In this document: one piece after another, positions 1 to 15,400 of the stretch
How positions within the stretch are numbered: the stretch's first letter is position 1
How the letters are laid out: every line of letters begins with the position of its first letter
Source of the DNA: a virus
Taxonomy: Duplodnaviria > Heunggongvirae > Uroviricota > Caudoviricetes
Direction: 5' to 3' (one strand)
Length of the DNA: 64,000 nt
IMG/VR virus record: IMGVR_UViG_3300046523_000117
Position numbers and translations under genes: made by a program
The notes under the pieces: generated by a model
Told to the model about the DNA's origin: nothing
The model's database searches: none
What the model saw: the letters and a program-made list of their open reading frames with translations, nothing else

Positions 1-52
1 TGCTCGCCTAGCCGAAATTGCATCATAGGCTTGTCAACATCAGGGAACCGGT

Positions 53-271: not shown

Positions 272-273
272 AG

Positions 274-621: not shown

Positions 622-632
622 AACTCCCCCGA

Positions 633-1073
633 TTAAATCGCCTTGATGATATCCGCGTTCTTTTCAAACCAGACCGCCAACTTTTGCAGGGCTTCGGCTG
701 GGGTCTTGCCTTTGATCTTGCGGAACTTCAAACCGGCTTCCCGCAACTGCCAAGAGCCAATGCCTTGTTGGATTTCAAACGTTTTTGCAACCGTTCCCGA
801 ACTGTTGCCGTTAAGTTGTAACAGGAACCGCATATAACCGCTAGCATTCATCAGGATTTTAGACGCGCAATCGTCACGGCTGGCGACGTTGGCGAATTCA
901 ATTTCTACATTGTCACCCAACAACTTGCGGGGATACGCACGGGCAATAAAGAACGGGAACACTTGTTCCATTTTGTTGTTAAAGGCTTGGATACCTTCGG
1001 CGGCATTGGCTACAGCTTCGGCTATCAATTCGGCTTGGGATTTGATAACTGTTACAAAATTTTGTTCGGTCAT
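633..1073 (-). CDS. hypothetical protein (146 aa)
   Basis: ORF 633..1148 trimmed to MTEQNF, preceded by AGGAAAcaaaatc; the track start MHQM lies inside the upstream repeat. Confidence 0.5.
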   Translation of the reverse strand: MTEQNFVTVIKSQAELIAEAVANAAEGIQAFNNKMEQVFPFFIARAYPRKLLGDNVEIEFANVASRDDCASKILMNASGYMRFLLQLNGNSSGTVAKTFEIQQGIGSWQLREAGLKFRKIKGKTPAEALQKLAVWFEKNADIIKAI

Positions 1074-1080
1074 GATTTTG

Positions 1081-1158
1081 TTTCCTGTTGTTGGTTTCGA
1101 TATGGTCAGTTTACAGGGTTTTGAATCAAGGTCAAGCATTTGATGCAAATATTTTTAG
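1081..1158 (-). promoter_or_regulatory. PeSL-like early promoter cassette, class B (no GGGG hairpin)
   Basis: GTTTCGATATGGTCAGTTTACAGGG...AAGCATTTGATGCAAATATTTTT; located between a terminator and the next gene start. Confidence 0.55.
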
Positions 1159-1188
1159 AAATAAAAAGCCCCTAGAATCAGGGGCTTA
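1159..1188 (-). terminator. rho-independent terminator (minus-strand oriented)
   Basis: AAAAAGCCCCTAGAATCAGGGGCTT on the plus strand gives a hairpin followed by a U-run on the minus strand, just downstream of gene 1192..1401. Confidence 0.7.
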
Positions 1189-1191
1189 GGA

Positions 1192-1401
1192 TCATTCGAC
1201 TAATTCTAAGTCGTCTTGATTCCAATACTTGCAGCCGTGCAAATCTTGATCTAACCAACATTCGCCGTCGTCACCGTAACAGGCCCGAATCTGCGCCGTG
1301 TGGTTGTCTTCCCGACCTTCTGGGCATACATGATTTAAATGGGCATGTGAACCCGGTTTCAGTCGCACTGTATCGCCTTTCTTTAGGATTCGGTCTGCCA
1401 T
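1192..1401 (-). CDS. hypothetical protein (69 aa)
   Basis: minus-strand ORF. Confidence 0.5.
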   Translation of the reverse strand: MADRILKKGDTVRLKPGSHAHLNHVCPEGREDNHTAQIRACYGDDGECWLDQDLHGCKYWNQDDLELVE

Positions 1402-1411
1402 GATTAACCCC

Positions 1412-1615
1412 TTATGCCCGTGCGTATACGTTGCCGGACGTGCGAACCGATCCGCCGCGTTCGATATGAGCCGCTGTAAATGGTGCCGACAACCCGAAAG
1501 AGTGCTGAGCTACAGGCACGCCCGGATTTTCTGGGCTATCCACTTGAAAGAAGGCACCGGACAGGCTACCGCGTACCACGTTAACTATCACGCCGTTGAT
1601 TTTGATCTTTTGCAT
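1412..1615 (-). CDS. hypothetical protein (67 aa)
   Basis: minus-strand ORF; 10 nt from the next gene. Confidence 0.45.
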   Translation of the reverse strand: MQKIKINGVIVNVVRGSLSGAFFQVDSPENPGVPVAQHSFGLSAPFTAAHIERGGSVRTSGNVYARA

Positions 1616-1626
1616 TTTGTAGCCCC

Positions 1627-1694
1627 TTGCTTAGTTGGTATGGTCAGTATAGCAGGGGTTGCATCAAATACAACCCCTTTGCATCAATTATTTT
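1627..1694 (-). promoter_or_regulatory. PeSL-like cassette, class A
   Basis: GGTATGGTCAGTATAGC AGGGGTTGcatcaaataCAACCCCT TTGCATCAATTATTTT. Confidence 0.6.
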
Positions 1695-1936
1695 GCCCGG
1701 CTTGCATCTTTCATGATAACGCGACCGCTTGGGGTTGTCGCAATCACCACGTTAGCCAGCTTTTCAGGGTTGCTCGACAGGTGCTGTTTAAGGCCCGGTT
1801 GGGTCTTGCCTTCGATCACGTCACCGGCTGGGGTTTGAATGATGAAACTATAAACCGAATTCCCGTTACCAGTGGCGTGCGAGAATTCAAATTTCTTGAC
1901 TTCTACTAGGTCGAAGGTTTGGCGAGTGGTTTGCAT
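1688..1936 (-). CDS. hypothetical protein (82 aa)
   Basis: minus-strand ORF. Confidence 0.5.
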   Translation of the reverse strand: MQTTRQTFDLVEVKKFEFSHATGNGNSVYSFIIQTPAGDVIEGKTQPGLKQHLSSNPEKLANVVIATTPSGRVIMKDASRAK

Positions 1937-2000
1937 GTTCGTATTCCCTGTTTCGGTTGGTGTGAAAGAAGTATAACAGCTATTTGATGCAATGCAAACT
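1937..2000 (-). promoter_or_regulatory. PeSL-like cassette, class B
   Basis: CCCTGTTTCGGTTGGTGTGAAAGAAGTATAACAGCTATTTGATGCAATGCAAAC. Confidence 0.55.
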
Positions 2001-2345
2001 TTATTTTGAATACACGTAACCAGTCCAATCCTCGACTAATTTTAAATCCTTGCCTTCTAAATCCGTTGGATAGAACCAGTATCCCCGGTTATATTCCAGC
2101 TCGACAATACGACCGGACGGCAGTTGTATACGGGTCCGGGTGTTTAGATATGGTTCACCCTCGACAAAATCCGTTTTAGTTTCCGTTTCAGGTCGGCAGC
2201 GAGCCGCGCCCATTTCTTCGGCCACAAATACCGCTTTAGCTTCACACATTGATTTAGTCAAATGCATGGCTTCGATAGTTTCGACGGTATCCATTGGGCT
2301 TGTAGCCCCGGCAACCAAAACTAAACCCATCAATGTATACAACAT
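2001..2345 (-). CDS. secreted hypothetical protein (114 aa)
   Basis: N-terminal signal-peptide-like MLYTLMGLVLVAGATSP. Confidence 0.5.
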   Translation of the reverse strand: MLYTLMGLVLVAGATSPMDTVETIEAMHLTKSMCEAKAVFVAEEMGAARCRPETETKTDFVEGEPYLNTRTRIQLPSGRIVELEYNRGYWFYPTDLEGKDLKLVEDWTGYVYSK

Positions 2346-2346
2346 A

Positions 2347-2556
2347 TCAAGCCCCTTCTGTTATTGGTTTGTCCAGAATATCGACAGCGGTACAAACTGC
2401 CATATAGTCGTGTTCGCCTTTGCCGACGTTGAAAGTATTCCCGACATAATAGGCTAGGATTTCAGAATCGGTTATTTTCCCGTTCATGCTACCACCTTCG
2501 GACCATACCGCCCCGTCTTCGCCTTTCCAGTGTGTTCTAAACGATCTTAAAGCCAT
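2347..2556 (-). CDS. hypothetical protein (69 aa)
   Basis: ORF trimmed to MALRS, preceded by AAGGGGAttcaatc; the upstream part of the track ORF is the repeat. Confidence 0.45.
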   Translation of the reverse strand: MALRSFRTHWKGEDGAVWSEGGSMNGKITDSEILAYYVGNTFNVGKGEHDYMAVCTAVDILDKPITEGA

Positions 2557-2624
2557 GATTGAATCCCCTTGAATATGGTTCATTCTAGCAAGGGGCTGCA
2601 TTTGATGCAACCCCTATTTTTGAA
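2557..2624 (-). promoter_or_regulatory. PeSL-like cassette, class A with flipped loop
   Basis: TTCTAGCAAGGGGCTGcatttgatgCAACCCCTATTTTT; -10 TAGAAT on the minus strand. Confidence 0.55.
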
Positions 2625-2918
2625 TCAGTCCAGATAAATTTTGGTAGCGATTACGCCAGCTTCCCGCAACTTGTCGTGACCTTTGACAGTGATATACGCG
2701 AAGTGTAACAGCGATTCGCCGGGGATACTGGTACGCGAGTCGGCCCGGTTCCGTATTTCTTCGGATTCCAGTTTGATGCGCAGAGACTTGCACAGGGCTT
2801 TAACCGTGGCGTCATTCGAATTGTCCCAAACAAGGGAAAACTTTTTGTAGCAGAATTCGGAATAAATCAGTTTGTCAACCGGTTGTGCTTCGCCCATTTC
2901 AGGATAATAACCGCTCAT
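2625..2918 (-). CDS. hypothetical protein (97 aa)
   Basis: ORF trimmed to MSGYY, preceded by AGAAGGGGctacaaa. Confidence 0.5.
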   Translation of the reverse strand: MSGYYPEMGEAQPVDKLIYSEFCYKKFSLVWDNSNDATVKALCKSLRIKLESEEIRNRADSRTSIPGESLLHFAYITVKGHDKLREAGVIATKIYLD

Positions 2919-3010
2919 TTTGTAGCCCCTTCTGGTTTGTTTTGCTTCGATATGGGTTATTCTAGCAGCTATTTGATGCAATGCAAGCATTTGATGCAAT
3001 TATTTTCAGA
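2919..3010 (-). promoter_or_regulatory. PeSL-like cassette, class B
   Basis: GCTATTTGATGCAATGCAAGCATTTGATGCAATTATTTT, directly after terminator 3014..3045. Confidence 0.55.
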
Positions 3011-3013
3011 CAA

Positions 3014-3045
3014 CAAAAAGCCCCGGTTTATCTGGGGCTTTTCAA
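3014..3045. terminator. bidirectional rho-independent terminator
   Basis: AAAAAGCCCCGGtttatCTGGGGCTTTTC. Confidence 0.7.
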
Positions 3046-3055
3046 TGGTTCGCGA

Positions 3056-3328
3056 TTAGATCAGGTCGGCCAGCTTGTAACCCATTGCAGCCTCGACCAT
3101 AGGCGTGATGGTCCGGGACGATTCACCGTAAACAATCACGCCACCTTTCGGCATCCATGTCAATTGGTCAGGCTTGAAAACATCAATTCGCATGATGTTA
3201 TTCTTTTTCGAGTTCGCGACATACGCCCGACCATGCCCGTCTTTTTCTGCTTTTTCTTGGGCTTCGATCAACCCGGCCAGAATACGATCTTGCATTACCG
3301 GGTGTTTTAGGCTGGTTTGGGTCAACAT
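3056..3328 (-). CDS. hypothetical protein (90 aa)
   Basis: minus-strand ORF. Confidence 0.5.
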   Translation of the reverse strand: MLTQTSLKHPVMQDRILAGLIEAQEKAEKDGHGRAYVANSKKNNIMRIDVFKPDQLTWMPKGGVIVYGESSRTITPMVEAAMGYKLADLI

Positions 3329-3400
3329 GATGATAATTCCGTTTCGGTTGGTATGAGTGGATTATGTTCTGAAATAATCCACTAGTCAAGGGGTTTTAAA
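3329..3400 (-). promoter_or_regulatory. PeSL-like cassette, degenerate
   Basis: CCGTTTCGGTTGGTATGAGTGG...CAAGGGGTTTTAAATCAAATTTGATTC. Confidence 0.4.
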
Positions 3401-3598
3401 TCAAATTTGATTCAGTGTATCCGCTAGAGCTTCGGCGGCAGCCTTGCTTAGTCCGGCCTGTATACATTCGTCAGACTCGCTCATAACCATCCAGCGGCCC
3501 GACAACGGGTTAAACTCGGCCCGGTATACTACAAACTGGCCTATAACGGCGTGTAGGGGCTTAGGCGAGCTTGTAGGGGTAGACATAACCGGCAACAT
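3401..3598 (-). CDS. hypothetical protein (65 aa)
   Basis: minus-strand ORF. Confidence 0.45.
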   Translation of the reverse strand: MLPVMSTPTSSPKPLHAVIGQFVVYRAEFNPLSGRWMVMSESDECIQAGLSKAAAEALADTLNQI

Positions 3599-3669
3599 AG
3601 GAAAATCTCCGAAAAGTTAAAAGCAAGTCAGACTAACAGGGGTTAACCGGATGTCAACCCCTCATTTGA
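3599..3669 (-). promoter_or_regulatory. PeSL-like cassette, variant hairpin
   Basis: AGGGGTTaaccggatgtcAACCCCT then CATTTGATCAAAT. Confidence 0.45.
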
Positions 3670-3945
3670 TCAAATCTTGATCGTTTCCCATGCTTTGCCG
3701 AAGTTCCATAGGGTTTTAGGGTAGTCGCGGTTGCGCTCAAAGGCGATAAGGCTAACCATGCCGTTTGCCTCGACAATGACAAACGCAACACTTTGAACCA
3801 AAATATTTGATTCCAACAACCGGCGAGCCGAACCGCGAGCGTCAAACATGGTAACCACAAGTTCCCGGCTTTCGATCTTGACCAGTGTATCTAGGTCAAA
3901 CAATGCGCGGAGTGGGTTGGTTTTAGCTGGGAGACGAAAGGACAT
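3670..3945 (-). CDS. hypothetical protein (91 aa)
   Basis: minus-strand ORF. Confidence 0.5.
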   Translation of the reverse strand: MSFRLPAKTNPLRALFDLDTLVKIESRELVVTMFDARGSARRLLESNILVQSVAFVIVEANGMVSLIAFERNRDYPKTLWNFGKAWETIKI

Positions 3946-4021
3946 TTTGATAACTCCGGTTCGGGTTGGTGTATGGCTATTCTAGCAAGGGGTTACAATT
4001 GATGCAACCCCTATTTCGATT
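3946..4021 (-). promoter_or_regulatory. PeSL-like cassette, class A with flipped loop
   Basis: TTCGGGTTGGTGTATGGCTATTCTAGCAAGGGGTTacaattgatgcAACCCCTATTTCGATTTTATTT. Confidence 0.6.
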
Positions 4022-4468
4022 TTATTTCAAACCGTTAAACAGTGTTTGCAGGTTTGGTAAATTCAATTCAGAAAACAGCCAGTCGTTAGCCTGATGGATA
4101 AAATCCCCCTCATAACCCGAGCCGATAAAATCCATGCCAACCAAACCCCAGAGGGATTCGATATTGATCCATTCCTCGGTTGGAATCGGGCGAACCTGCA
4201 TCACCGCCCCATAAACCCCTTGAGAGTTCACACGGGCGCGAAACGCTCTCTTTTGGCGTGCCAGTGTGGTTACTTCGATATCCGGGTTAGCTTCCGGGTT
4301 GTAGCAGTCCCCGCAAAGATCCTCAAAACTATAATTATCGTCTTCGACCAAAACGATTCGGAACAACCCGAGCATAAACGCCGAAGTCACACGGGTTACG
4401 TCGGTATTCTTACCCACTGTTTTCAAAACTTCTTTCGTTATGTTCTTGCCGTTGTCTGCATAGTTCAT
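4022..4468 (-). CDS. hypothetical protein (148 aa)
   Basis: minus-strand ORF. Confidence 0.55.
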   Translation of the reverse strand: MNYADNGKNITKEVLKTVGKNTDVTRVTSAFMLGLFRIVLVEDDNYSFEDLCGDCYNPEANPDIEVTTLARQKRAFRARVNSQGVYGAVMQVRPIPTEEWINIESLWGLVGMDFIGSGYEGDFIHQANDWLFSELNLPNLQTLFNGLK

Positions 4469-4546
4469 GATGTTGCCCCTGTTTTGGTTGGTGTATGGTC
4501 AGTATAAAGGGTTTGCATCAATTGTCAAACCCTTTTGCATCAAATT
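4469..4546 (-). promoter_or_regulatory. PeSL-like cassette, class A variant
   Basis: CCCCTGTTTTGGTTGGTGTATGGTCAGTATAAAGGGTTTGcatcaattgtCAAACCCTTTTGCATCAAATTTTAC. Confidence 0.6.
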
Positions 4547-4852
4547 TTACAAATGAGTATCCAGACCAGTGACGCGGGTAAATTCGCTTTGCAGCATGTC
4601 GCAATAGATACCCTCGACTTTGCAAACCATTTTCAGGTTAACGCCGCGAGTGTAATAGAATTCGATGTCATACAAATCCGCTGGGGTCAAGATGATTTTA
4701 ACCAAATTGATTTTATCTTTTGCGAAATTAGAAGGCATTTTGAACTGTAGGAAGTTTTCACCACCAACAAATTGCTTGACACCACACATTACAGCGAACT
4801 TGTGGCCGCCGAGTTGTTGGCGGATGGTTTCGGCTATGATCAATTTGGACAT
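4547..4852 (-). CDS. hypothetical protein (101 aa)
   Basis: minus-strand ORF. Confidence 0.5.
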   Translation of the reverse strand: MSKLIIAETIRQQLGGHKFAVMCGVKQFVGGENFLQFKMPSNFAKDKINLVKIILTPADLYDIEFYYTRGVNLKMVCKVEGIYCDMLQSEFTRVTGLDTHL

Positions 4853-4927
4853 TTTCGTATTCCCTGTTTTGGTTGGTGTGTGGTTAGTATAGCAGGGGTT
4901 GCATCAAATACAACCCCCTATTTGATT
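4853..4927 (-). promoter_or_regulatory. PeSL-like cassette, class A
   Basis: CCCTGTTTTGGTTGGTGTGTGGTTAGTATAGCAGGGGTTGcatcaaataCAACCCCCTATTTGATTTTATTTG. Confidence 0.6.
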
Positions 4928-5131
4928 TTATTTGTGGTTCAAACGATCCAGATAGCCAGACGCATAGTAATACGCGCCCATATTGCAAGGCTTGAACCCA
5001 ACCGGGTTTTCCAAATTGAATTTTTCGATACACGCGGCCAACCCCATGCCCGCGATATCAGCAGCGGCAGATTCCCAACCTTTCATGTAGTCCGGTTGAT
5101 GTTCGGTATGGGTTACAGTGCGAGGGGCCAT
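4928..5131 (-). CDS. hypothetical protein (67 aa)
   Basis: minus-strand ORF. Confidence 0.45.
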   Translation of the reverse strand: MAPRTVTHTEHQPDYMKGWESAAADIAGMGLAACIEKFNLENPVGFKPCNMGAYYYASGYLDRLNHK

Positions 5132-5210
5132 TTTTGAAACTCCGGTTTGGTTGGTGTATGATCAGTATAGCAGGGGTTGCATCAAATACAACCCCTTTCT
5201 ATCAAATTAT
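5132..5210 (-). promoter_or_regulatory. PeSL-like cassette, class A
   Basis: GTTTGGTTGGTGTATGATCAGTATAGCAGGGGTTGcatcaaataCAACCCCT. Confidence 0.6.
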
Positions 5211-5534
5211 TTAAAAATTGTAGTCGTAGAATTTGCGCGGGGCTTCGGCTAATACATGCTTGCCGTAGGCACTGTGAAAGTAACCATCTTTACGCAACCG
5301 GCAACGAATAACCGGGGCGGATTCATCACTGGCATAAATCCATTTTTGGGTTTGTTGGTTTGTACAATGACCAGCAAAGCCACCGGGGATAATGTTCGGC
5401 TTCCAGCTTGGATCTAGGGTTGCCGTCATAGAGCGGACTTCGATAGTCTTTTCGCTTATGACCTTGACAATTTCGAATGGTTGGATATCGCTGTAACCGT
5501 GCATGTTCGCGAATTTCATTTCTGTCATGTCCAT
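5211..5534 (-). CDS. hypothetical protein (107 aa)
   Basis: minus-strand ORF. Confidence 0.5.
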   Translation of the reverse strand: MDMTEMKFANMHGYSDIQPFEIVKVISEKTIEVRSMTATLDPSWKPNIIPGGFAGHCTNQQTQKWIYASDESAPVIRCRLRKDGYFHSAYGKHVLAEAPRKFYDYNF

Positions 5535-5625
5535 TTTATTTCTCCGGGGTTGTTTTGTTTCGATATGGTTAGTCTACGCCTAATTTGATGCAATGCAAGC
5601 ATTTGATGCAAATATTTTAAAATAA
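5535..5625 (-). promoter_or_regulatory. PeSL-like cassette, class B
   Basis: TTGTTTCGATATGGTTAGTCTACGCCTAATTTGATGCAATGCAAGCATTTGATGCAAATATTTT. Confidence 0.55.
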
Positions 5626-5749
5626 TTTTTGGCACATCAATTGCATAGACAAGAATCATGCCAACTCAAATCTCGCCCACCCTCCCTGTTTACCTCTGAG
5701 CCTCCCCAGTAACTATAGAATAGCACACTCAAAACAGAATACAACCCCG

Positions 5750-5780
5750 GAACAAAAATAAACCCGACTTTCGCCGGGTC
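5750..5780 (-). terminator. putative rho-independent terminator (minus-oriented)
   Basis: AAAAATAAACCCGactttcgcCGGGT on the plus strand, read as hairpin plus U-run on the minus strand after gene 5796..6005. Confidence 0.45.
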
Positions 5781-5795
5781 TATTGGTTTGATGCA

Positions 5796-6005
5796 TTACG
5801 CCGGTTTTTTGATGTCGTGGCCCCAGTCGTCAACCGTATTAGGCCCATCGTATACAGCCGCGTATAAGGTCGTAACCGCACTAACCCGGATACCAACCCC
5901 ACAACACAACGCAACGCCTACCAGTGGCTTGCGGCCCGCTTGCACGTTGTATTCCACCGGGCTGTTTAACTTCAATTCTTGCTTACAGTGTGGGCATTCC
6001 ATCAA
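5796..6005 (-). CDS. Zn-ribbon-like small protein (69 aa)
   Basis: CPHCK...CC cysteine pairs. Confidence 0.5.
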   Translation of the reverse strand: MMECPHCKQELKLNSPVEYNVQAGRKPLVGVALCCGVGIRVSAVTTLYAAVYDGPNTVDDWGHDIKKPA

Positions 6006-6008
6006 ATA

Positions 6009-6338
6009 CTACTCCGGGTTTTTGAAAACGTCCGGGTCTTCCCGTTCCATTTCTTCAAGGGTTTGAATCCGGGGAACCTTGATCCCGTTGGCGACAATAT
6101 AAACTTTCAGGGTCAGTTCATAGTCGTTATTGCGCAGGCTATTCAAATAAGCCTTTACAGAGTCGGACAACACGCCTTCGCCTTTCTCAATGAATTCATC
6201 CAGCTTTATCGCTGCATCTGTCATGGTCGGGCCTGTATAGATTTGGAAGCTTGCAACGTGCTGCATATCACCTTTAAGGTTTGGATAGAAAACATCTATA
6301 CAGGTTTTGTAGTAGCCGGGGGTTGATGTCATTGGCAT
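6009..6338 (-). CDS. hypothetical protein (109 aa)
   Basis: minus-strand ORF, 3 nt after the upstream gene. Confidence 0.5.
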   Translation of the reverse strand: MPMTSTPGYYKTCIDVFYPNLKGDMQHVASFQIYTGPTMTDAAIKLDEFIEKGEGVLSDSVKAYLNSLRNNDYELTLKVYIVANGIKVPRIQTLEEMEREDPDVFKNPE

Positions 6339-6341
6339 GGT

Positions 6342-6512
6342 TTATGCTCCAGTATATGGGGTCAGGTCGCGTTCATGAAAAGAGCCAGCATCACCGCCGA
6401 TAGTACCGAACCGGCAGCTATACCAGCCATTGGCACGAACTTCGGTGATAGTCAACCAAAAAGGACCATCAGCCATAACTTTGTCTTTAATCGAGAATTT
6501 GTTATCTAGCAT
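6342..6512 (-). CDS. hypothetical small protein (56 aa, below the ORF-track cutoff)
   Basis: Found by hand translation: MLDNKFSIKDKVMADGPFWLTITEVRANGWYSCRFGTIGGDAGSFHERDLTPYTGA. It fills the gap between a PeSL and gene 6009..6338. Confidence 0.4.
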   Translation of the reverse strand: MLDNKFSIKDKVMADGPFWLTITEVRANGWYSCRFGTIGGDAGSFHERDLTPYTGA

Positions 6513-6585
6513 GATGGCGGTTCCTTGTTGGTGTATGGTCAGTATAGCAGGGGTTGCATCAAATACAACCCCTTTGCATCAATTT
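6513..6585 (-). promoter_or_regulatory. PeSL-like cassette, class A
   Basis: CCTTGTTGGTGTATGGTCAGTATAGCAGGGGTTGcatcaaataCAACCCCTTTGCATCAATTTTTAC. Confidence 0.6.
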
Positions 6586-6828
6586 TTACAGGTATTCGGC
6601 CATATAGGCAGACAGTTCAACCAATACAGGCGTTTTATCGGGGCTATTGAACTGGATAAAATCGTTTGCGCAAAACACATAGACACTATGGTAAGTGTCG
6701 GTTTCGCGGGTCTTCCAGATATCTAAACGGATTTCCCGGCCTTGAGGCGTGACCATTTCAGCCTCAAAAATTTTATCCGCAAGCCCGGTACTGATTTGTT
6801 TCAGGGGTTTAACATCACCGATAGCCAT
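6586..6828 (-). CDS. hypothetical protein (80 aa)
   Basis: minus-strand ORF. Confidence 0.5.
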   Translation of the reverse strand: MAIGDVKPLKQISTGLADKIFEAEMVTPQGREIRLDIWKTRETDTYHSVYVFCANDFIQFNSPDKTPVLVELSAYMAEYL

Positions 6829-6913
6829 TGCGCAAATCCTTGTATTGGTTGGTGTATTAGGATTATGGCATCAACGGCAATAGCTGTCAAGCTATTTGAT
6901 GCAATTATTTCAA
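6829..6913 (-). promoter_or_regulatory. PeSL-like cassette, class B / degenerate
   Basis: TTGTATTGGTTGGTGTATTAGG...GCTATTTGATGCAATTATTTCAATT. Confidence 0.4.
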
Positions 6914-7117
6914 TTAAATTTCATGTTCGAATTTGTGCCCGACATTTTCCCAATAGGTCGCGGTGACCTCATAACCATCCTTCGCCGGGAAACGCTCTCT
7001 AAGGACATTTAACAGCATGATTGCGCTGGTTTCGGTAACCGCCGACCTTTCAGCCGTGGCGAATAGGTGACGGCCTTTATAACTTACGTTGATTTCGTAA
7101 TGCGATTGATTAGCCAT
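6914..7117 (-). CDS. hypothetical protein (67 aa)
   Basis: minus-strand ORF. Confidence 0.45.
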   Translation of the reverse strand: MANQSHYEINVSYKGRHLFATAERSAVTETSAIMLLNVLRERFPAKDGYEVTATYWENVGHKFEHEI

Positions 7118-7118
7118 G

Positions 7119-7409
7119 TCAAGCCCCTTTCATCCAGTTATTCAGTGTACGAATAGAATCACCACGCGGGCGACTCTGATAGGCAAACGAGTATTCTAAC
7201 CAGTCCCACGCCTTACCAGCACGAACCATGCCCATTAGGCGTTCCAGCTTACCGATACGACGATAAACCTTTGCAGTGACCAACCGGGGGCTTTCCCACT
7301 GATAACCATCCTCAGAACCCACACGCACGAACCCATGCTTTTCTAGCAGTGTGTCGCGTTCGGCTTCAAGGGCTTTGTAGTATGCGGTTCGAATGGTTGC
7401 CATGATCAA
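7119..7409 (-). CDS. hypothetical protein (96 aa)
   Basis: minus-strand ORF, 1 nt after the upstream gene. Confidence 0.5.
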   Translation of the reverse strand: MIMATIRTAYYKALEAERDTLLEKHGFVRVGSEDGYQWESPRLVTAKVYRRIGKLERLMGMVRAGKAWDWLEYSFAYQSRPRGDSIRTLNNWMKGA

Positions 7410-7464
7410 ATCCCTGTTTCGGTTGGTATGGGGTTAGTATAACCCCATTTGATGCAATTGCAAA
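7410..7464 (-). promoter_or_regulatory. PeSL-like cassette, variant
   Basis: CCCTGTTTCGGTTGGTATGGGGTTAGTATAACCCCATTTGATGCAATTGCAAATTAATTTTTAG. Confidence 0.5.
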
Positions 7465-7713
7465 TTAATTTTTAGGGATTTTGTCACCCGGCAAATACTG
7501 GCGAACAATCCCGTCATTGCACAACCGTACAAGGTTGCCCAGTTCGTCGCGGTATTGAGCTAAGCACGAATCGCCACGGATTTGACGGACTTTGTTAGTC
7601 ATGATCCGTTGATCATTGCGCGGCAGTTTGGCATAGATTTCAGTTGCATTTTTGTCGGCTATTGCTTGATCGACAAACTGAGTTAGCAACAGTTGTTTTT
7701 TGAATTCGTGCAT
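7465..7713 (-). CDS. hypothetical protein (82 aa)
   Basis: minus-strand ORF. Confidence 0.5.
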   Translation of the reverse strand: MHEFKKQLLLTQFVDQAIADKNATEIYAKLPRNDQRIMTNKVRQIRGDSCLAQYRDELGNLVRLCNDGIVRQYLPGDKIPKN

Positions 7714-7788
7714 TTCAAAACCCTCTTTTCGTTTGGTGTGATAGAAGTATAATAGGGGATTGCATCAAATGCAACCCCCTATTTGATT
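7714..7788 (-). promoter_or_regulatory. PeSL-like cassette, class A
   Basis: TCGTTTGGTGTGATAGAAGTATAATAGGGGATTGcatcaaatgCAACCCCCTATTTGATTTTATTTTG. Confidence 0.6.
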
Positions 7789-8118
7789 TTATTTTGGGTC
7801 TTCGACTGGTTTATGTTTACCAGTAGTCGAAAGAATCCGCACGTTTTCAACTTCGGATATCGGTACAGTTTCACCCTTGCGGATTTCGTTCACGCCGTCC
7901 TCTTTCGTGATTTTGTTCGGCATGTATTCACTAATGGTATAGTGCGCAGCCTTCGGCAGTTCCACACGACACACGACAGTCATAACCCCATCAGGTTTGT
8001 GGCGATTCAAAGTGCTAACCCCTATATAACGGGCAGCCTCCTTTATGGCGCCTTCACGGGTGTCAGCAACACCCCAGCCGTAGGCGGTTGATGCATAATA
8101 GTGGTGATTCATTTTCAA
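7789..8118 (-). CDS. hypothetical protein (109 aa)
   Basis: minus-strand ORF. Confidence 0.5.
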   Translation of the reverse strand: MKMNHHYYASTAYGWGVADTREGAIKEAARYIGVSTLNRHKPDGVMTVVCRVELPKAAHYTISEYMPNKITKEDGVNEIRKGETVPISEVENVRILSTTGKHKPVEDPK

Positions 8119-8495
8119 ACCCCTTTGATTTTCTGGATTGCACCATTGGAAAAGTAAACCACAATATTAGATAACAGTTCCCCGATATCATCCTTTGTAT
8201 TTGGTTCACGCACATAAAAATCAATGATAGCCCGCCCATCGTCTGAGAGTTCCACGCCTTGGGTGAATTGTGACCAGTCAACAGGCGACCACAAATCAGT
8301 ATCAGACCAATTATCGCCAGTTAGATCAGTTACACGGGCGATATTGATATGGGTGTCTTTATCGCGATTGGTCAGGCTTACACGCTCGCCAACTTCGATT
8401 GTTACACGCTTGCGACCAACTTCCTTGCGAGCCGCTTCACGTATTTGAAAGCATTCTTTAGTGCTAGGCTTCCAAACGTTATTGATGATCGACAT
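8115..8495 (-). CDS. hypothetical protein (126 aa)
   Basis: minus-strand ORF with a 4-nt start/stop overlap with the downstream gene. Confidence 0.5.
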   Translation of the reverse strand: MSIINNVWKPSTKECFQIREAARKEVGRKRVTIEVGERVSLTNRDKDTHINIARVTDLTGDNWSDTDLWSPVDWSQFTQGVELSDDGRAIIDFYVREPNTKDDIGELLSNIVVYFSNGAIQKIKGV

Positions 8496-8569
8496 TTCAA
8501 AAATTCCCTGTTTCGGTTGGTGTATGATCAGTATAATAGGGATTGCATCAAATGCAACCCCTATTTGAT
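8496..8569 (-). promoter_or_regulatory. PeSL-like cassette, class A
   Basis: CCCTGTTTCGGTTGGTGTATGATCAGTATAATAGGGATTGcatcaaatgCAACCCCTATTTGATTTAAAT. Confidence 0.6.
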
Positions 8570-8788
8570 TTAAATCTGGTGTGGTGTAAACGTCATACCT
8601 TTAGCCGGACCATCAACCCCCATGCAAACAGATTGGGCCTTGATTGCAGCAGCTTGGGCCTGTTCGAAGGTATCAAACTGCATAGCCAGCTTGATAGAAC
8701 CCATGCAAGCGGTCCCCCACGTATCGCACCACTCATGCAAATAATCAGAACCGGATATCCCATAGGTACGCTTTACTACATAAGCCAT
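8570..8788 (-). CDS. hypothetical protein (72 aa)
   Basis: ORF trimmed to MAYVV, preceded by AAAAGGGGtttgatc. Confidence 0.5.
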   Translation of the reverse strand: MAYVVKRTYGISGSDYLHEWCDTWGTACMGSIKLAMQFDTFEQAQAAAIKAQSVCMGVDGPAKGMTFTPHQI

Positions 8789-8863
8789 GATCAAACCCCT
8801 TTTCGTTTGGTGTGATAGCAGTATAGCAAGGGGTTGTATTTGATGCAACCCCCTTTGATGCAA
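8789..8863 (-). promoter_or_regulatory. PeSL-like cassette, class A with flipped loop
   Basis: TTTCGTTTGGTGTGATAGCAGTATAGCAAGGGGTTGtatttgatgCAACCCCCTTTGATGCAATTATTTTT. Confidence 0.6.
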
Positions 8864-9073
8864 TTATTTTTCCCAATCATGCAAAGTTGTGGTGATTTCC
8901 TCAAACCCATTACCTGCATCATCAAACCAGCACCGCACAACCGCACGACGCCCAGCTATGACCGTTTCGATTTTCGGGTCTTCAACCAAACCGGAAACAT
9001 CACCCAACACTTCAACCGATACGCGATTGGTCCAATTGGTGATTTTTACAAACTTCACGATTTGGTTTGACAT
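8864..9073 (-). CDS. hypothetical protein (69 aa)
   Basis: minus-strand ORF. Confidence 0.45.
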   Translation of the reverse strand: MSNQIVKFVKITNWTNRVSVEVLGDVSGLVEDPKIETVIAGRRAVVRCWFDDAGNGFEEITTTLHDWEK

Positions 9074-9148
9074 TTTGTAGTCCCTGTTTCGGTTGGTGTA
9101 AGATCATTCTATAGGGGTTTGCATCAAATTGCAAACCCCTATTTGATT
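9074..9148 (-). promoter_or_regulatory. PeSL-like cassette, class A (11-bp stem)
   Basis: CCCTGTTTCGGTTGGTGTAAGATCATTCTATAGGGGTTTGCAtcaaatTGCAAACCCCTATTTGATTTTATTTG. Confidence 0.6.
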
Positions 9149-9598
9149 TTATTTGTGGTTCTTTTTGGCTTCGGTCAGGTCAGCAATCAATTTGTTTTGT
9201 TGGTTGACTTCCCATTCAATTTGGTCTACCACATAAACCGCTTGACCTTTTTCGTTTGCACCGTTTTGAACTTGACGGGCCTTCGCTTGTGCTATCCGCA
9301 AATCATTGTAACGGGTTGCGTTTTGGACAGTAGCCCAGCCAGCGGTGTCGCCTTCAAACTTGACACATACACGCAATTTGCCAGTGATAACCATGTAACC
9401 GGTTGGGTTAGTTGCTTTGAAAGCTTCCAGCCGTGCTATGTAGCCTTGCGATTCGGTAATCATGCCGTTAATCATGTCAATCATTGGGTTTACCTTCTGG
9501 TTTAGGTGTTTCAGGCACAGGGCGAACGTGGCTGCATAGTTGTCACCCGGTTGAATGATTTCTTTAGTCAACTTGTGGGCTTGGGCAAATGCGTTCAT
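9149..9598 (-). CDS. hypothetical protein (149 aa)
   Basis: minus-strand ORF. Confidence 0.55.
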   Translation of the reverse strand: MNAFAQAHKLTKEIIQPGDNYAATFALCLKHLNQKVNPMIDMINGMITESQGYIARLEAFKATNPTGYMVITGKLRVCVKFEGDTAGWATVQNATRYNDLRIAQAKARQVQNGANEKGQAVYVVDQIEWEVNQQNKLIADLTEAKKNHK

Positions 9599-9690
9599 GT
9601 TCGTATTCCCTGTTTCGGTTGGTGTAAGGTCAGTATACGCCTAATTTGATGCAATGCAACCCATTTGATGCAATTATTTTAAAATAGTTG
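9599..9690 (-). promoter_or_regulatory. PeSL-like cassette, class B
   Basis: TCCCTGTTTCGGTTGGTGTAAGGTCAGTATACGCCTAATTTGATGCAATGCAACCCATTTGATGCAATTATTTTAAAATAG. Confidence 0.55.
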
Positions 9691-9771
9691 TGGGAAATAT
9701 TCGTGCCAATACCTTTTTGGGGTCGTCAATCCATTTTCTCATATTTTTCTAGGGGATGTCAATACCAACAG

Positions 9772-9800
9772 ACAAAATAAAACCCGGACAATGCCGGGTC
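9772..9800 (-). terminator. putative rho-independent terminator (minus-oriented)
   Basis: ACAAAATAAAACCCGGacaatgCCGGGT on the plus strand, read as hairpin plus U-run on the minus strand after gene 9810..10061. Confidence 0.5.
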
Positions 9801-9809
9801 AAGGTGTTG

Positions 9810-10061
9810 TTACATCACTCGGTTTATCGGATCAATACTAAACAATACTTGCTCATGTAGTGCGGTTTGACAGTCTTGCAGAGTCTTGAATCGATGTTCA
9901 AAGATGGTAACGCCGAGTTTATCCTTGACTGAATAACCGTTATCATGTGCATCGATAACAAAGGTCAGGCAATGCGTCCCCAACATATCAAAGTTAATAA
10001 CAACGTCGGCATGGTAACGCCCGACATATAAGCCACGTAACAAGATCCTATCAATACGCAC
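9810..10061 (-). CDS. hypothetical protein (83 aa)
   Basis: minus-strand ORF. Confidence 0.5.
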   Translation of the reverse strand: MRIDRILLRGLYVGRYHADVVINFDMLGTHCLTFVIDAHDNGYSVKDKLGVTIFEHRFKTLQDCQTALHEQVLFSIDPINRVM

Positions 10062-10069
10062 AAAACCCC

Positions 10070-10282
10070 CTAGAACGCTGTCAGGCGAACGAAAGAACCA
10101 CCCTTTACCAGATCATGTACCAGTTCAGCGCCTTGCACAGCCAGTTCATAGGAACCGTCAATTTGCAGCCAGTGAGTTGAACCCTCATGATAGCTATCGG
10201 TAATCACCCCGATAGTTTCCATGTCTTGGTTGGTTCTGGCTTCTTCGCCCATCAACGCCTTGTGATTATATGTCATGTTCAA
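10070..10282 (-). CDS. hypothetical protein (70 aa)
   Basis: minus-strand ORF. Confidence 0.45.
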   Translation of the reverse strand: MNMTYNHKALMGEEARTNQDMETIGVITDSYHEGSTHWLQIDGSYELAVQGAELVHDLVKGGSFVRLTAF

Positions 10283-10476
10283 ACCTCCTTTACAACAAAC
10301 GCATCAAAGGGATAATCATGCGAAACGTTACCGGTCTTGGTTTCGATAGTCAAGGTGATCCACCCGTCGTGATCCTCGAAACAACGGCTTACTAGTTTGC
10401 CCATGACCAGTTCGCCACTAACTACCATAGCGATGATGTTACCAATTTTTGCATCAACCGCGTTTATCAATTGCAT
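10279..10476 (-). CDS. hypothetical protein (65 aa)
   Basis: minus-strand ORF with a 4-nt overlap. Confidence 0.45.
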   Translation of the reverse strand: MQLINAVDAKIGNIIAMVVSGELVMGKLVSRCFEDHDGWITLTIETKTGNVSHDYPFDAFVVKEV

Positions 10477-10545
10477 GTTTGTCGCTCCCTTGTTGGTGAT
10501 TAGATTCTAGCAAGGGGCTGCAATTGATGCAACCCCTATTTGATG
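10477..10545 (-). promoter_or_regulatory. PeSL-like cassette, class A with flipped loop
   Basis: CCCTTGTTGGTGATTAGATTCTAGCAAGGGGCTGcaattgatgCAACCCCTATTTGATG. Confidence 0.55.
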
Positions 10546-10716
10546 TTATTCGATAGACCAACCGGCAATATCAGACATCAACCATTTAGCATCAGACCGG
10601 CCAGACTTGCGGTTAATGATGTTGATGGATTCGCCGTTGAATTCCACCCGGTACAGAATCAACGAATAAGAATTTGTCCCGGCATCCTCAAACAGCAAAC
10701 GAAAGAGTATAGGCAT
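10546..10716 (-). CDS. hypothetical small protein (56 aa, below the ORF-track cutoff)
   Basis: hand translation MPILFRLLFEDAGTNSYSLILYRVEFNGESINIINRKSGRSDAKWLMSDIAGWSIE. Confidence 0.4.
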   Translation of the reverse strand: MPILFRLLFEDAGTNSYSLILYRVEFNGESINIINRKSGRSDAKWLMSDIAGWSIE

Positions 10717-10718
10717 GA

Positions 10719-10937
10719 TTATTCCCCCAAAAACTTTGCATAGGCAGCTTCACGTTTAGCGGTGCATATGTCTTTTGAATCGGTCAATTGGACTTTTTCA
10801 GCACAGCCAGCCGAATAGCCAGCCTGAAACGTTTTATAGCCATTCGGTTGGGTTGTTGCATTGAATGGGTTTTCTTTATAGTAACCCAGCGAGCCGGCCC
10901 GATAAGCGTATTCAAAGATTTCTTTTTGACTGGCCAT
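10719..10937 (-). CDS. hypothetical protein (72 aa)
   Basis: minus-strand ORF. Confidence 0.45.
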   Translation of the reverse strand: MASQKEIFEYAYRAGSLGYYKENPFNATTQPNGYKTFQAGYSAGCAEKVQLTDSKDICTAKREAAYAKFLGE

Positions 10938-11014
10938 TTCGATATTCCCTGTTTCGGTTGGTGTGATAGCAGTATAAAAGGGATTGCATCAAATTACAAC
11001 CCCTTTCTATCAAA
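10938..11014 (-). promoter_or_regulatory. PeSL-like cassette, class A
   Basis: TTCCCTGTTTCGGTTGGTGTGATAGCAGTATAAAAGGGATTGcatcaaattaCAACCCCTTTCTATCAAATTATTTT. Confidence 0.6.
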
Positions 11015-11326
11015 TTATTTTCCGGCTTTAGTCATCATGACCAGTTCGTTATGGTTACGGCAGATCATGGCCGCGTTAGGGATTTGATTCATCCAGTCCT
11101 CAAACCCATGCTTGACAAACCGAGATTTCATCACATCCAGAACCGCGAATTTCATTTCTTCAACGGTTGGGGATTCTTCCAGCACAGCCCGACGATAATC
11201 ATCGGCAGTTGCATAACCGTTGGTTACAAAGTAACGCATACGATCATTAGCCGACGCCTTCTTACCTTCAAACCATGCCGCTTTGACTTGGGTTTGTATG
11301 TTCGCTGGGAGGCTGGAAAGTTTCAT
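11015..11326 (-). CDS. hypothetical protein (103 aa)
   Basis: minus-strand ORF. Confidence 0.5.
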   Translation of the reverse strand: MKLSSLPANIQTQVKAAWFEGKKASANDRMRYFVTNGYATADDYRRAVLEESPTVEEMKFAVLDVMKSRFVKHGFEDWMNQIPNAAMICRNHNELVMMTKAGK

Positions 11327-11405
11327 GTCATTAACCCTGTTTCGGTTGGTGTATGGTCAGTATAGCCCCTGTACATTCAGAGTCAAGCAATTTGATGCAA
11401 TTATT
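11327..11405 (-). promoter_or_regulatory. PeSL-like cassette, class B
   Basis: ACCCTGTTTCGGTTGGTGTATGGTCAGTATAGCCCCTGTACATTCAGAGTCAAGCAATTTGATGCAATTATTTT. Confidence 0.55.
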
Positions 11406-11409
11406 TTAA

Positions 11410-11445
11410 GAAAAGAAAAAGCCCCTAGAATCAGGGGCTTATTTT
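11410..11445. terminator. rho-independent terminator
   Basis: AAAAGAAAAAGCCCCTAGAATCAGGGGCTTATTTTAG. Confidence 0.7.
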
Positions 11446-11833
11446 AGAATTCTTCTTTTCGTTCCATATCCCGGAAATATCCTTGACTGTCAAGGGTTTG
11501 ATATGCATTAGAGCCGTATCTAGGATCAGTTTCAATCCAGTGCATAGGGTCAAGCTTACCGCCTGCATTCACGAATAACCGGATTCTTTCGGCCAATGCT
11601 TCGGCCTTGTTAGATGATTCTTCGCGAAGGTCTTCAAAAAACACCATGCCGTCGCAGTCCTCACCGCCTTCTATACGCTTAGCAGCATCAAAGCGGGCAG
11701 TATGTATCCACCGTTGGCCGTTAGGGGCTTCGGCTTCAATGTAATAGCGTTCGGCTATGAATGCTTCGCCGTCCTCAGTTAAACCGTAGTTAAACAGATC
11801 AGATGCAACCCCGATTTCTAAAGCCATGATCAA
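11444..11833 (-). CDS. hypothetical protein (129 aa)
   Basis: minus-strand ORF. Confidence 0.55.
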   Translation of the reverse strand: MIMALEIGVASDLFNYGLTEDGEAFIAERYYIEAEAPNGQRWIHTARFDAAKRIEGGEDCDGMVFFEDLREESSNKAEALAERIRLFVNAGGKLDPMHWIETDPRYGSNAYQTLDSQGYFRDMERKEEF

Positions 11834-11895
11834 AACCCCTTTGTTTGGTGTATGGTTATTCTAACAGACCACATCCAACCGTCAAGGGTTTGATG
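11834..11895 (-). promoter_or_regulatory. PeSL-like cassette, degenerate (last copy)
   Basis: CCCCTTTGTTTGGTGTATGGTTATTCTAACAGACC...GGGTTTGATGCAATTATTTTCAAATT. Confidence 0.4.
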
Positions 11896-12111
11896 CAATT
11901 ATTTTCAAATTAGCCGATAGATTGCAACACCTACCGGAATGCAATAGAAAGGACACGCCAGAACAAACCAACCCCAGCGAGTTCTAGACGGTATAGGAGG
12001 CGTGATATTACGGCACCAGCCTATCACCAGCAAAACCAATCCAATGGCAGCCATCGACGCCATAGAGCTGTTAAAATTCATATGTTAATAAACCCTCAGA
12101 ATCGCCCAAAT

Positions 12112-14458: not shown

Positions 14459-14836
14459 TTACTTTTCGAACGTGGTGATATGTACAACCCGATCAAAGCT
14501 AAAACCGTCTTCCCTTGCTTTCTTGATTGCAGCCACTTCGGCTACCGCATCCGTTAACGCTTGAACCTCATACGTTACTTCTACCGGTTCGCCCCACTTT
14601 CTATGCTGTATTTCCCTGCATTCTATCGTAATGCGTTTATAGACCTTTGTAGGTCGTTCTAGCCTTGGTGCTGGAAGCTTCGCCACCAACGGACCTTTAT
14701 GTTTCCCTAGCTTCTTATCCCGCTTAGCTCGTTTGGCTTGTCGCTTAGCTTCTTCGGCTTCAAGCTTTTGTTGGTGTGCGTATGCTTCCAAATTAGCCCA
14801 CGCTTTTATTTCGGCTTCCAGATCCTTATAACTCAT
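14459..14836 (-). CDS. basic coiled-coil protein (125 aa)
   Basis: minus-strand ORF; KR-rich. Confidence 0.5.
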   Translation of the reverse strand: MSYKDLEAEIKAWANLEAYAHQQKLEAEEAKRQAKRAKRDKKLGKHKGPLVAKLPAPRLERPTKVYKRITIECREIQHRKWGEPVEVTYEVQALTDAVAEVAAIKKAREDGFSFDRVVHITTFEK

Positions 14837-15400
14837 TGCTAACCCCTATATGGTTTGGTTGGTGTATGCCCATTCTATACCATAGAGCATACAAGTCAAG
14901 CATATGATGCAATTAATTTGTACTGATTCAATCAAACCATAACACTACTAGGATAGGAACAGAATCAATATGATGCATTGGGTAGGGTTTGATGCAATCG
15001 GCCCGTGTGCGTGACTACAGGGGCTTACGTGGTGTATTGGATATGATGCAAAGGATTAGGAATTGATGCAATGCGATGGGGACTATTGTGTACCGGATGA
15101 ATGGTAATAGAATCGACTAGTGTATTAGGAATTGATATGGTAGACTAGTGATGGTGGGAGGACTATTGTGTTTCGATAGGGGGTGCTAGTGTGGGAGGGG
15201 TGCCAGGGGTGCCGGGGAGGGGTGAAAATTAAGGTTCCATACCTATGGATTCCTTGGCAGTTTAGTGGATGTGAGTAAGTTATTAGACACCCTCCCCGAT
15301 TCCAAAAAATTTCCATATGTACAGAAATCGACAAAAAGTTTCCTAGATGTCGATTCCAAAAAAATTTTCCACCAAAAAATTCGGCTTCAAAACTTTTTCC
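14837..15400. other. 564-bp non-coding region with iteron-like repeats, a G-quadruplex-capable G-rich tract and an inverted repeat
   Basis: ATATGATGCA x3; TTAGGAATTGAT x2 (a third copy at 13165); GGACTATTGTGT x2; GGGAGGGGTGCCAGGGGTGCCGGGGAGGGG at 15190..15225; GAAATCGACA...TGTCGATTCC; GATTCCAAAAAA(A)TTT(T)CCA x2. Confidence 0.6.

Follow-up and report, generated by a model that had tools for sequence, protein, structure and literature searches.

A dense array of probable PeSL-type cassettes

The window analysed here, a 64,000-nucleotide stretch of the Caudoviricetes record IMGVR_UViG_3300046523_000117, carries near its left end an array of ~85-bp cassettes, each placed directly upstream of a small gene. 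We consider it highly probable that these units are promoter-early stem-loop (PeSL) cassettes with a regulatory function, situated in a T4-type phage's hyperplastic early region. PeSLs were defined in the coliphages phi1 and RB49 as conserved repeats of ~100 bp upstream of ORFans in hyperplastic regions, a length for which the initial annotation of the present element had given ~70 bp. Each repeat combines a sigma70-like promoter with an AT-rich tract and with a Shine–Dalgarno sequence (SD) and ATG, and its Gn-loop-Cn stem-loop takes one of five positions (Arbiol et al, 2010; PMC2839356). The initial annotation had recognised the elements as PeSLs while tracing these to Aeromonas phages, which that paper mentions only in passing. 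Every sequence-level defining feature of a PeSL is present in the window, and relatives differ from it by gain, loss and re-ordering of open reading frames (ORFs), with chimeric cassettes at the joints. The array would be a new, unusually dense and uniform example, in a clade without an earlier description.

The repeat families D1–D11, reported by a repeat finder between 1 and 14 kb, are fragments of a single element. From an alignment of 25 upstream regions anchored on their start codons (A1), we built an nhmmer profile that gave 25 strong matches in the window (E-values from 4e-5 to 3e-20), all on the minus, that is the coding, strand. The matches are 58–95 nt long, mostly 78–95 nt, and every copy lies directly 5′ of an ATG, in register with the start codon. 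Twenty-four of them fall within 1071–11908, which agrees with the at least 24 copies first proposed among the tiny genes between 1.1 and 11.9 kb, and one more, at 14838–14921 (~14.9 kb), lies outside that span; between 15 and 64 kb, no match to the profile is better than E~0.01. The span of the main array, first given as 1081–11895, is corrected to 1071–11916. That the copies share a consensus beyond chance, as had been claimed, is also seen with the leader core ACACCAACCNAAAC, which at up to two mismatches has 22 matches against 2.2 expected, a number reached in none of 100 shuffles; 16 of these matches are cassettes.

Between 11827 and 1073 there are 33 genes, and the proposal that each small ORF carries its own cassette holds for 24 of them. 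The remaining nine start 1–10 nt past the upstream stop codon, as judged from coordinates, which points to translationally coupled passengers. The placement also bears on whether the array could consist of selfish or structural repeats (REP/BIME-like, MITE-like or CRISPR-like) unrelated to expression. Such repeats are likewise short, numerous, intergenic and hairpin-containing, but the cassettes share a single orientation, a fixed register ending at SD and ATG, and invariant −35/−10 features, and they have neither terminal inverted repeats nor target duplications. Their spacing is irregular (278–2009 nt), and the "spacers" are ORFs. We therefore regard an origin as selfish repeats as extremely improbable.

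Similar arrays occur in relatives. A search with the leader core retrieved three uncultivated IMG/VR contigs, which come from phages other than this one and are 70–90% identical to the window in shared genes; among the larger relative loci, L007 carries 32 cassettes in 20 kb and L008 carries 20. The nearest cultured relatives by DNA polymerase are the Pseudomonas phages Milchi and Astolliot (71.6% amino acid identity), and the host is probably a Pseudomonas. Milchi has at least 24 and Astolliot at least 20 cassettes, which in both records occupy ~16 kb at the right-hand end; they share the hairpin/−35/−10 core with the window and differ in the leader, which reads …TATACTGATCACATCAAAACAGGAGATACACCATG. 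The cassette elements go unmentioned in the Milchi paper, and the nick motif given there (WACTRTGAC) belongs to the unrelated phage Rembedalsseter, not to Milchi or to these cassettes. Concerted evolution of the leader within each genome was considered and is only partly true: the leader is clade-specific (the window and the three contigs versus Milchi and Astolliot), not genome-specific. Among GenBank phages, megablast with the 11-kb region detected no close DNA relative; the relatives surfaced only through protein-level and profile searches. In L007, the closest relative, the array runs for at least seven further copies (17063–19877, compared with window 1–1070) beyond the homologue of the window's leftmost gene, which suggests that the window's left edge probably cuts the array.

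Putative promoter, leader and start codon

On the coding strand, the cassettes follow one order: a stop codon within an A/T-rich tract, a −35, a spacer of 16–17 nt, a −10, a leader, an SD and the ATG. The A/T-rich tract is of the AAAATAA… type and often holds TTGCATCAA or its complement. The initial annotation had described sigma70-like boxes about 17 bp apart, and at the level of sequence all 25 copies indeed read TTGnnn, 16–17 nt, then TAnnnT or CATAAT; in A1, the TT of the −35 and the T, A and T of the −10 are invariant or nearly so. The −35 is TTGCAT in ten copies, TTGACn in eight, TTGTAT in four, TTGCAA in two and TTGTAA in one, while the −10 is TATACT in 13, TAGAAT in seven, CATAAT in two, and TAGACT, TAAACT or TAGTCT in one each. 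A conserved C/A-rich leader, GACCATACACCAACCGAAACAGGG, follows, reading GA(C/T)CATACACCAACCGAAACAGGG after the −10, and all copies end in AGGG or GGAG, 5–9 nt and the ATG, bearing out the leader with a suitably spaced SD that had been described. Around the AUG the sequence is rich in A, as it is in RegA operators. Each ~85-bp unit would serve as a self-contained expression module, in which an UP-like A/T tract and a host-sigma70-type promoter are followed by a C/A-rich 5′ leader without structure and by the SD and start codon.

The individual copies are as follows (all minus strand; genes are named by their start positions; −35, spacer in nt and −10 in that order; hairpins over the −35 unless stated).

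14834..14921, before gene 14836: TTGACT/16/TAGAAT; outlier beyond the interval first proposed, no clear stem-loop, E 1.9e-11
11825..11908, before gene 11827: TTGACG/16/TAGAAT; no canonical hairpin
11324..11411, before gene 11326: TTGACT/16/TATACT; preceded by canonical terminator 11419–11440
10935..11020, before gene 10937: TTGTAA/17/TATACT; hairpin, −15.9 kcal/mol
10474..10541, before gene 10476: TTGCAT/17/TAGAAT; hairpin, −18.2 kcal/mol; short leader
9596..9684, before gene 9598: TTGCAT/16/TATACT; tandem TTGCATCAAAT, no hairpin; terminator 9781–9800 upstream
9071..9154, before gene 9073: TTGCAA/17/TAGAAT; 13-bp hairpin, −21.4 kcal/mol, z −7.1
8786..8873, before gene 8788: TTGCAT/17/TATACT; hairpin, −13.1 kcal/mol
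8493..8572, before gene 8495: TTGCAT/16/TATACT; hairpin, −18.4 kcal/mol
7711..7798, before gene 7713: TTGCAT/17/TATACT; hairpin, −21.7 kcal/mol
7401..7488, before gene 7403: TTGCAA/16/TATACT; stem-loop over −10, GGGGTTA-TAC-TAACCCC, −13.6 kcal/mol
6826..6914, before gene 6828: TTGACA/17/CATAAT; no canonical hairpin
6510..6592, before gene 6512: TTGTAT/16/TATACT; hairpin, −17.2 kcal/mol
5532..5622, before gene 5534: TTGCAT/16/TAGACT; tandem TTGCATCAAAT; terminator 5757–5784 upstream
5129..5215, before gene 5131: TTGTAT/16/TATACT; best profile match, E 3.5e-20; hairpin, −19.1 kcal/mol, z −5.2
4850..4933, before gene 4852: TTGTAT/16/TATACT; hairpin, −15.9 kcal/mol
4466..4554, before gene 4468: TTGACA/16/TATACT; hairpin GGGTTTG/CAAACCC, −12.7 kcal/mol, a compensatory variant
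3943..4032, before gene 3945: TTGCAT/17/TAGAAT; hairpin, −16.2 kcal/mol
3596..3682, before gene 3598: TTGACA/16/TAGTCT; hairpin, −16.0 kcal/mol; divergent leader
3326..3399, before gene 3328: TTGACT/17/CATAAT; stem-loop over −10, −11.1 kcal/mol, z −4.0
2916..3010, before gene 2918: TTGCAT/16/TAGAAT; tandem TTGCATCAAAT; terminator-like hairpin and T-run just upstream (~3010–3036, read from the sequence)
2554..2631, before gene 2556: TTGCAT/17/TAGAAT; hairpin with a U·G pair, −17.9 kcal/mol
1934..2016, before gene 1936: TTGCAT/16/TATACT; no hairpin
1613..1696, before gene 1615: TTGTAT/16/TATACT; hairpin, −17.2 kcal/mol
1071..1159, before gene 1073: TTGACC/16/TAAACT; preceded by canonical terminator 1166–1187, 97% identical to 11412–11441

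The cassettes also leave a trace in gene calling. Proteins starting MHQM had been set aside as artefacts of translation into the element; fifteen mechanical ORFs do begin MHQ within it, starting from TTG-CAT-CAA rather than from an ATG, and four real genes (starts 1073, 2556, 2918 and 8788) are over-extended into their own cassettes by such calls. A reading of the boxes as MotA-dependent middle promoters (the PmSL type) was rejected. MotA middle promoters have a TGCTT box centred near −30, 11–13 nt upstream of the −10, whereas the TGCTTGA present in six copies lies 18 nt from the −10, within an ordinary −35 TTGAC; no MotA-box version of the cassette was found.

Stem-loops and terminators

Fourteen of the 25 copies contain the hairpin (A)GGGGTTG…CAACCCC(T), which encloses the −35 (−12.7 to −21.7 kcal/mol, z −4.1 to −7.1), and in two others (before genes 7403 and 3328) a stem-loop lies over the −10 instead. 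Taken together, these 16 copies have folding energies of −11 to −21.7 kcal/mol and z-scores of −3.2 to −7.1. The hairpin that the initial annotation had assigned to the element is thus canonical in 14 copies rather than general, and its stem measures 9–11 bp, not 8 bp. Five hairpin-less copies (before genes 11326, 9598, 5534, 2918 and 1073) are preceded by a separate canonical intrinsic terminator. A terminator scan returned the following sites.

1166–1187, 5757–5784, 9781–9800 and 11419–11440: true intrinsic terminators

Two of these lie in stretches, 1159–1188 and 11412–11441, that are 97% identical over 30 nt although 10 kb apart (repeat D15), and a cassette of one hairpin-less type, AAAATA(A/T)TTGCATCAAAT..TTGAC, comes after both. 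The identity together with the shared cassette type suggests that a terminator-plus-cassette unit was duplicated or gene-converted.

Comparison of hairpins across genomes indicates that they fold in the sense transcript and that selection acts there. With 46 distinct hairpin copies from six genomes, RNAalifold yielded a 9-bp consensus stem in which three pairs show compensatory changes, and one-sided stem changes in the same copies comprise 38 G·U cells versus three C·A cells, pair counts that come from paralogues and are not independent events. Folds of the sense strand contain 67 G·U pairs and those of the antisense strand eight, and in 50 of 66 copies it is the sense fold that has the greater stability. 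Such asymmetry is not what a double-stranded protein site would produce.

This asymmetry bears directly on the possibility that the palindrome TTGCAT-N3-ATGCAA is an operator for a dimeric repressor or activator of all the early promoters, the hairpin being a by-product of its symmetry. The palindrome does overlap the −35, and TTGCATCAA is over-represented across the whole window; copies that lack the hairpin also have it in their UP region, there non-palindromic and pointing either way. However, neither the excess of G·U over C·A nor the compensatory changes are expected of an operator, Milchi and Astolliot keep the G/C stem while the loop and palindrome centre differ (TTGTATTACGGTACAA), and the G4/C4 clamp lies outside the palindromic core. 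We thus find the operator explanation improbable.

Under the PeSL interpretation, the hairpin would have a role in RNA. It lies upstream of the predicted start of its own cassette and would therefore be present only in RNA read through from the upstream gene, where it would most likely act as an attenuator or terminator, or as a stabiliser of the 3′ end. Either the hairpin or a separate terminator would insulate the tiny genes, so that every single gene or coupled pair forms an early transcription unit by itself.

Exchange within cassettes

Gene content has been rearranged between the window and its relatives. L007 is collinear with the window, with some modules missing, inserted or replaced: the two-gene module 10937+10716 and genes 9073, 8788 and 8495 are missing, while 7713 to 6828, 6002 to 5131, 2918+2556 and 1615 are replaced. 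In L008 the gene order is visibly re-ordered. Most lineage-specific ORFs are arranged as cassette-ORF-cassette units. Where module 10937+10716 is absent from L007, a chimeric cassette (L007 7445–7523) shows the homology of the window cassette after gene 11326 and then that of the cassette before gene 10476, the change-over coming at the hairpin's 5′ arm. As a general trend, 5′ cassette parts are closest to the cassette following the same upstream gene (rank 1 in 7 of 10 cases) and 3′ parts to the cassette preceding the same downstream gene (rank 1 in 5 of 8), even where the other neighbouring gene differs. This pattern argues that exchange points lie inside the cassettes. With ~85 bp of repeated homology at nearly every gene boundary, the cassettes would offer in-register crossover points for phage recombination, and a single ORF with one cassette could be deleted, inserted or moved with its expression kept.

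The same comparisons raise the question whether the cassettes have any special part in recombination. They could be purely regulatory units, strong early promoters and attenuators kept alike by functional selection, with the shuffling being ordinary phage mosaicism from which selection retains arrangements with intact genes. Breakpoints are in fact not enriched at cassette junctions: compared with L007, 12 of 17 junctions with a cassette are disrupted versus 5 of 9 without (Fisher p = 0.67), in a tally made by hand from tblastn-based gene maps, automatic ORF clustering having overlooked some homologies. Exchanges also occur at coupled gene junctions without a cassette, and several replacements end at such junctions (8495|8112, 2556|2345 and 1615|1401); viable rearrangements must, in any case, end between genes. 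Ordinary mosaicism does not, however, readily explain why cassettes at novel joints are chimeric and switch within the element, or why many lineage-specific ORFs are bounded on each side by exactly one intact cassette. Moreover, promoter activity, terminator activity and PeSL mini-circles were demonstrated experimentally in RB49 and phi1, and in these phages the loss of an ORF leaves behind one chimeric element (Arbiol et al, 2010; PMC2839356). On balance, a purely regulatory role strikes us as rather unlikely, and we favour PeSL-type cassettes that would serve both expression and exchange; the mechanism of recombination, including any mini-circles, is one that we infer.

Several observations weigh against this interpretation, among them the lack of breakpoint enrichment, the exchanges at cassette-less junctions and the paralogy behind the pair counts. 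Four of the 25 copies have no clear stem-loop. The −35 hairpins have no U-tract on the sense strand and none passed the terminator scan (T-run criterion, coding strand), so that strong termination by them is doubtful. The −35 words TTGCAT and TTGTAT agree with TTGACA at three of six positions, and a generic promoter scan gave no overall excess of sites above shuffles (36 versus 28.9 ± 5.8). Promoter use, strength and timing, like the position of the +1, are predictions.

The coupled junctions have a feature of their own. They share, for example at 8112–8130, 7117–7130, 2345–2360, 1401–1415 and 271–285, the short conserved motif AAAGGGG(C/T)TTGAnnATG, an SD with an overlapping stop codon, and several module replacements in relatives end exactly at junctions of this kind. 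The motif may represent a second, micro-homology exchange point.

Genome context

The window's genes lie on the minus strand, and the phage genome to which it belongs is of the T4 type. Core genes at 50–64 kb encode the gp43 polymerase, UvsX, the gp41 helicase, the gp61 primase and topoisomerase II, and RnlA is also encoded in the window. An AsiA homologue lies at 50002–50292 (PF09010, 37 bits) and a full-length RegA translational repressor at 62220–62612 (PF01818, 163 bits); no MotA homologue was found among the ten ORFs scanned, in a scan that was not exhaustive. Since shut-off of early promoters does not require AsiA according to the T4 literature, we use AsiA and RegA solely as evidence of a T4-type programme. 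A tRNA scan found none, and an Rfam search (E-value mode, 1–16 kb) gave nothing at gathering score and nothing inside the cassettes. Among the small proteins of the array, 22 of 30 have no PHROG family, and the other eight belong to families of "unknown function".

A 9-mer on the coding strand

The word TTGATGCAA on the coding strand (TTGCATCAA on the plus strand) forms the 3′ half of the cassette hairpin, with TTGAT[G/A]NAA as its degenerate form, and has 52 matches in the window versus 1.2 expected. Outside the array (15001–64000), it is the commonest coding-strand 9-mer, with 17 copies versus three on the other strand. In the core region it occurs about every 2.5 kb, inside core genes and without conserved flanks, for example at the sites below.

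61723–61731, 59603–59611, 57564–57572, 55056–55064, 53246–53254, 52889–52897, 51710–51718 and 48527–48535: TTGATGCAA

Within ORFs, the word was observed 14 times versus 2.1–2.2 expected when synonymous codons were shuffled within genes (z 9.7), and Asp-Ala is encoded as GAT-GCA at 13 of 16 phi-Asp-Ala-x sites that permit the full word versus 13 of 57 elsewhere (p = 3e-5). Selection at the nucleotide level strongly favours the word on the coding strand across the core genes, and likewise in late genes of relatives. The sibling words TTGATGTAA, TTGATACAA and TTGATGGAA are enriched as well, and words altered at other positions are not. Relatives keep TTGATGCAA as a top coding-strand 9-mer, with sites partly conserved (L011–L014, L017 and L018 are among the loci carrying it). 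Two relatives have late-gene regions encoded by the other DNA strand, and there too the word prefers the coding strand (4:1 and 3:0); its orientation therefore follows transcription. Milchi has no equivalent of the word.

Several readings of TTGATGCAA were rejected. As an antisense sigma70 promoter, only 2 of 17 copies have a −10, against a background of 5.6%; as a sense or late promoter, it shows no fixed downstream box and no consistent position relative to gene starts. The synonymous-codon nulls rule out an artefact of codon usage or codon pairs, and a tie to one fixed DNA strand, as for a nick site, is disfavoured by its following the coding strand in the relatives' late genes. An IHF-type site, judged by eye only, is unsupported outside a few cassettes.

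A literature search for the word found nothing relevant. Its form (A/U)UUGAUG(C/U)AA resembles the site selected by T4 RegA in SELEX, AAAAUUGUUAUGUAA (T4 literature), and RegA is encoded here; we treat this likeness as a lead only. Tentatively, TTGATGCAA might mark a new sequence-specific system of this T4-like sub-clade, either an mRNA binding or cleavage site, with RegA as one candidate, or a Chi-like directional DNA signal. Such a system would connect the early cassettes with a control of recombination or RNA fate that acts on the whole genome.

Other features of the window

Directly upstream of the array, 11905–12924 holds five very small ORFs (58–88 aa) that are strongly hydrophobic and overlap or abut one another, with no cassettes between them; the GC content here is lower than in the surroundings. 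The adjacent ~450 nt (12925–13372) are non-coding, with a GC content of ~0.41 and a reversed AT skew. This region contains a perfect 24-nt direct repeat (13290–13313 and 13354–13377, CATCAAATTGCAGCAGATTTCACC on the plus strand), a 12-nt inverted repeat with its arms 210 nt apart and several TTGATGCAA-like words; it could serve in regulation, as an origin or as a locus for a small RNA.

A second promoter-like repeat (D14), different from the cassettes, occurs at 5712–5744 and 12953–12985 with 85% identity between the copies across 33 nt; its coding-strand sequence is TTGTATTCTGTTT..A.TGTGCTA.TCTAT. A terminator or a long non-coding stretch precedes each copy, and the repeat resembles a separate class of promoter with an extended −10. 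The window lacks TATAAATA, the canonical word of T4 late promoters, of which 1.8 copies would be expected in its 64 kb. In the relatives' late-gene DNA, L017 and L018 (~23 kb each) contain one copy and none, respectively. This clade may have a late promoter unlike that of T4.

Implications

PeSL-type modular shuffling, documented so far for T4-like phages of coliphage, Yersinia and Vibrio type, would with this array extend to a Pseudomonas-type T4-like clade, which supplies natural examples of chimeric cassettes. As the densest and most uniform array among those compared, it is convenient for work on the mini-circle and recombination model and for mapping early transcription units. The cassettes mark accessory ORFans that are candidate host-takeover or anti-defence genes, and they account for annotation errors, namely ORFs over-extended through TTG-CAT-CAA and spurious ORFs on the opposite strand. 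For use in pseudomonads, they are also predicted to provide promoter and leader together in a compact, portable form. A separate, testable lead is TTGATGCAA, the word found on the coding strand throughout the genome.

Comparison with known systems

Like the PeSLs of phi1 and RB49, the cassettes combine an AT tract, a sigma70-like early promoter, a Gn-loop-Cn element and SD/ATG over ~100 bp upstream of ORFans. The position of the stem-loop varies in both, lying over the −35, over the −10 or upstream in the window, and in both a chimeric cassette remains after ORF loss. The phi1 and RB49 promoters, in contrast, are near-perfect TTGACA-N17-TATAAT, and their commonest stem lies between the boxes or over the −10. 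Function was shown there by experiment, whereas the present cassettes are known from sequence and belong to a different host clade, the Pseudomonas-type T4-like phages. T4 itself, with early-gene control by RegA, RegB and AsiA, also uses host sigma70 at early promoters with A/T-rich upstream tracts (review PMC3014915), and homologues of its RegA and AsiA are encoded in the window, but T4 early promoters are not found in a repeated ~85-bp unit with a common leader at such density.

Comeau, Arbiol and Krisch (2014) extended PeSLs to PST/T4 and nt-1/KVP40, with a −35 consensus of TTGYVH in nt-1 (PMC4122927). The likeness to nt-1/KVP40 covers an A-run, a G-run stem with the −35 in its 5′ arm and loop, a −10, a C/A-rich leader, an SD and the ATG; the words TTGCAT and TTGTAT fit TTGYVH, and in both the window and nt-1 a hyperplastic region adjoins indels and replacements. 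When we read the PeSL-rich stretch of nt-1 directly, we found the −35 inside an AAAGGG…CCCTTTT hairpin and a C/A-rich leader, …CATCGAAAC…; the conserved leader is therefore not new. The stems differ, being G4TTG/CAAC4 in the window and A3-4G3/C3T3-4 in nt-1, where a T-run makes canonical terminators, and so do the −10 elements (TATACT/TAGAAT versus TAWWAT).

The two regions also differ in density.

Window: 24 cassettes, 33 genes, 10.8 kb
nt-1, 42–60 kb: 11 gaps, 36 genes, 18 kb

The window thus has one cassette per 450 bp, whereas nt-1 has one intergenic gap of at least 40 nt per ~1.6 kb. Mean identity over the 80 nt upstream of the ATG is 0.67 in the window versus 0.55 in nt-1 and 0.55 in a random control, and the description of the copies as unusually numerous and uniform agrees with both comparisons.

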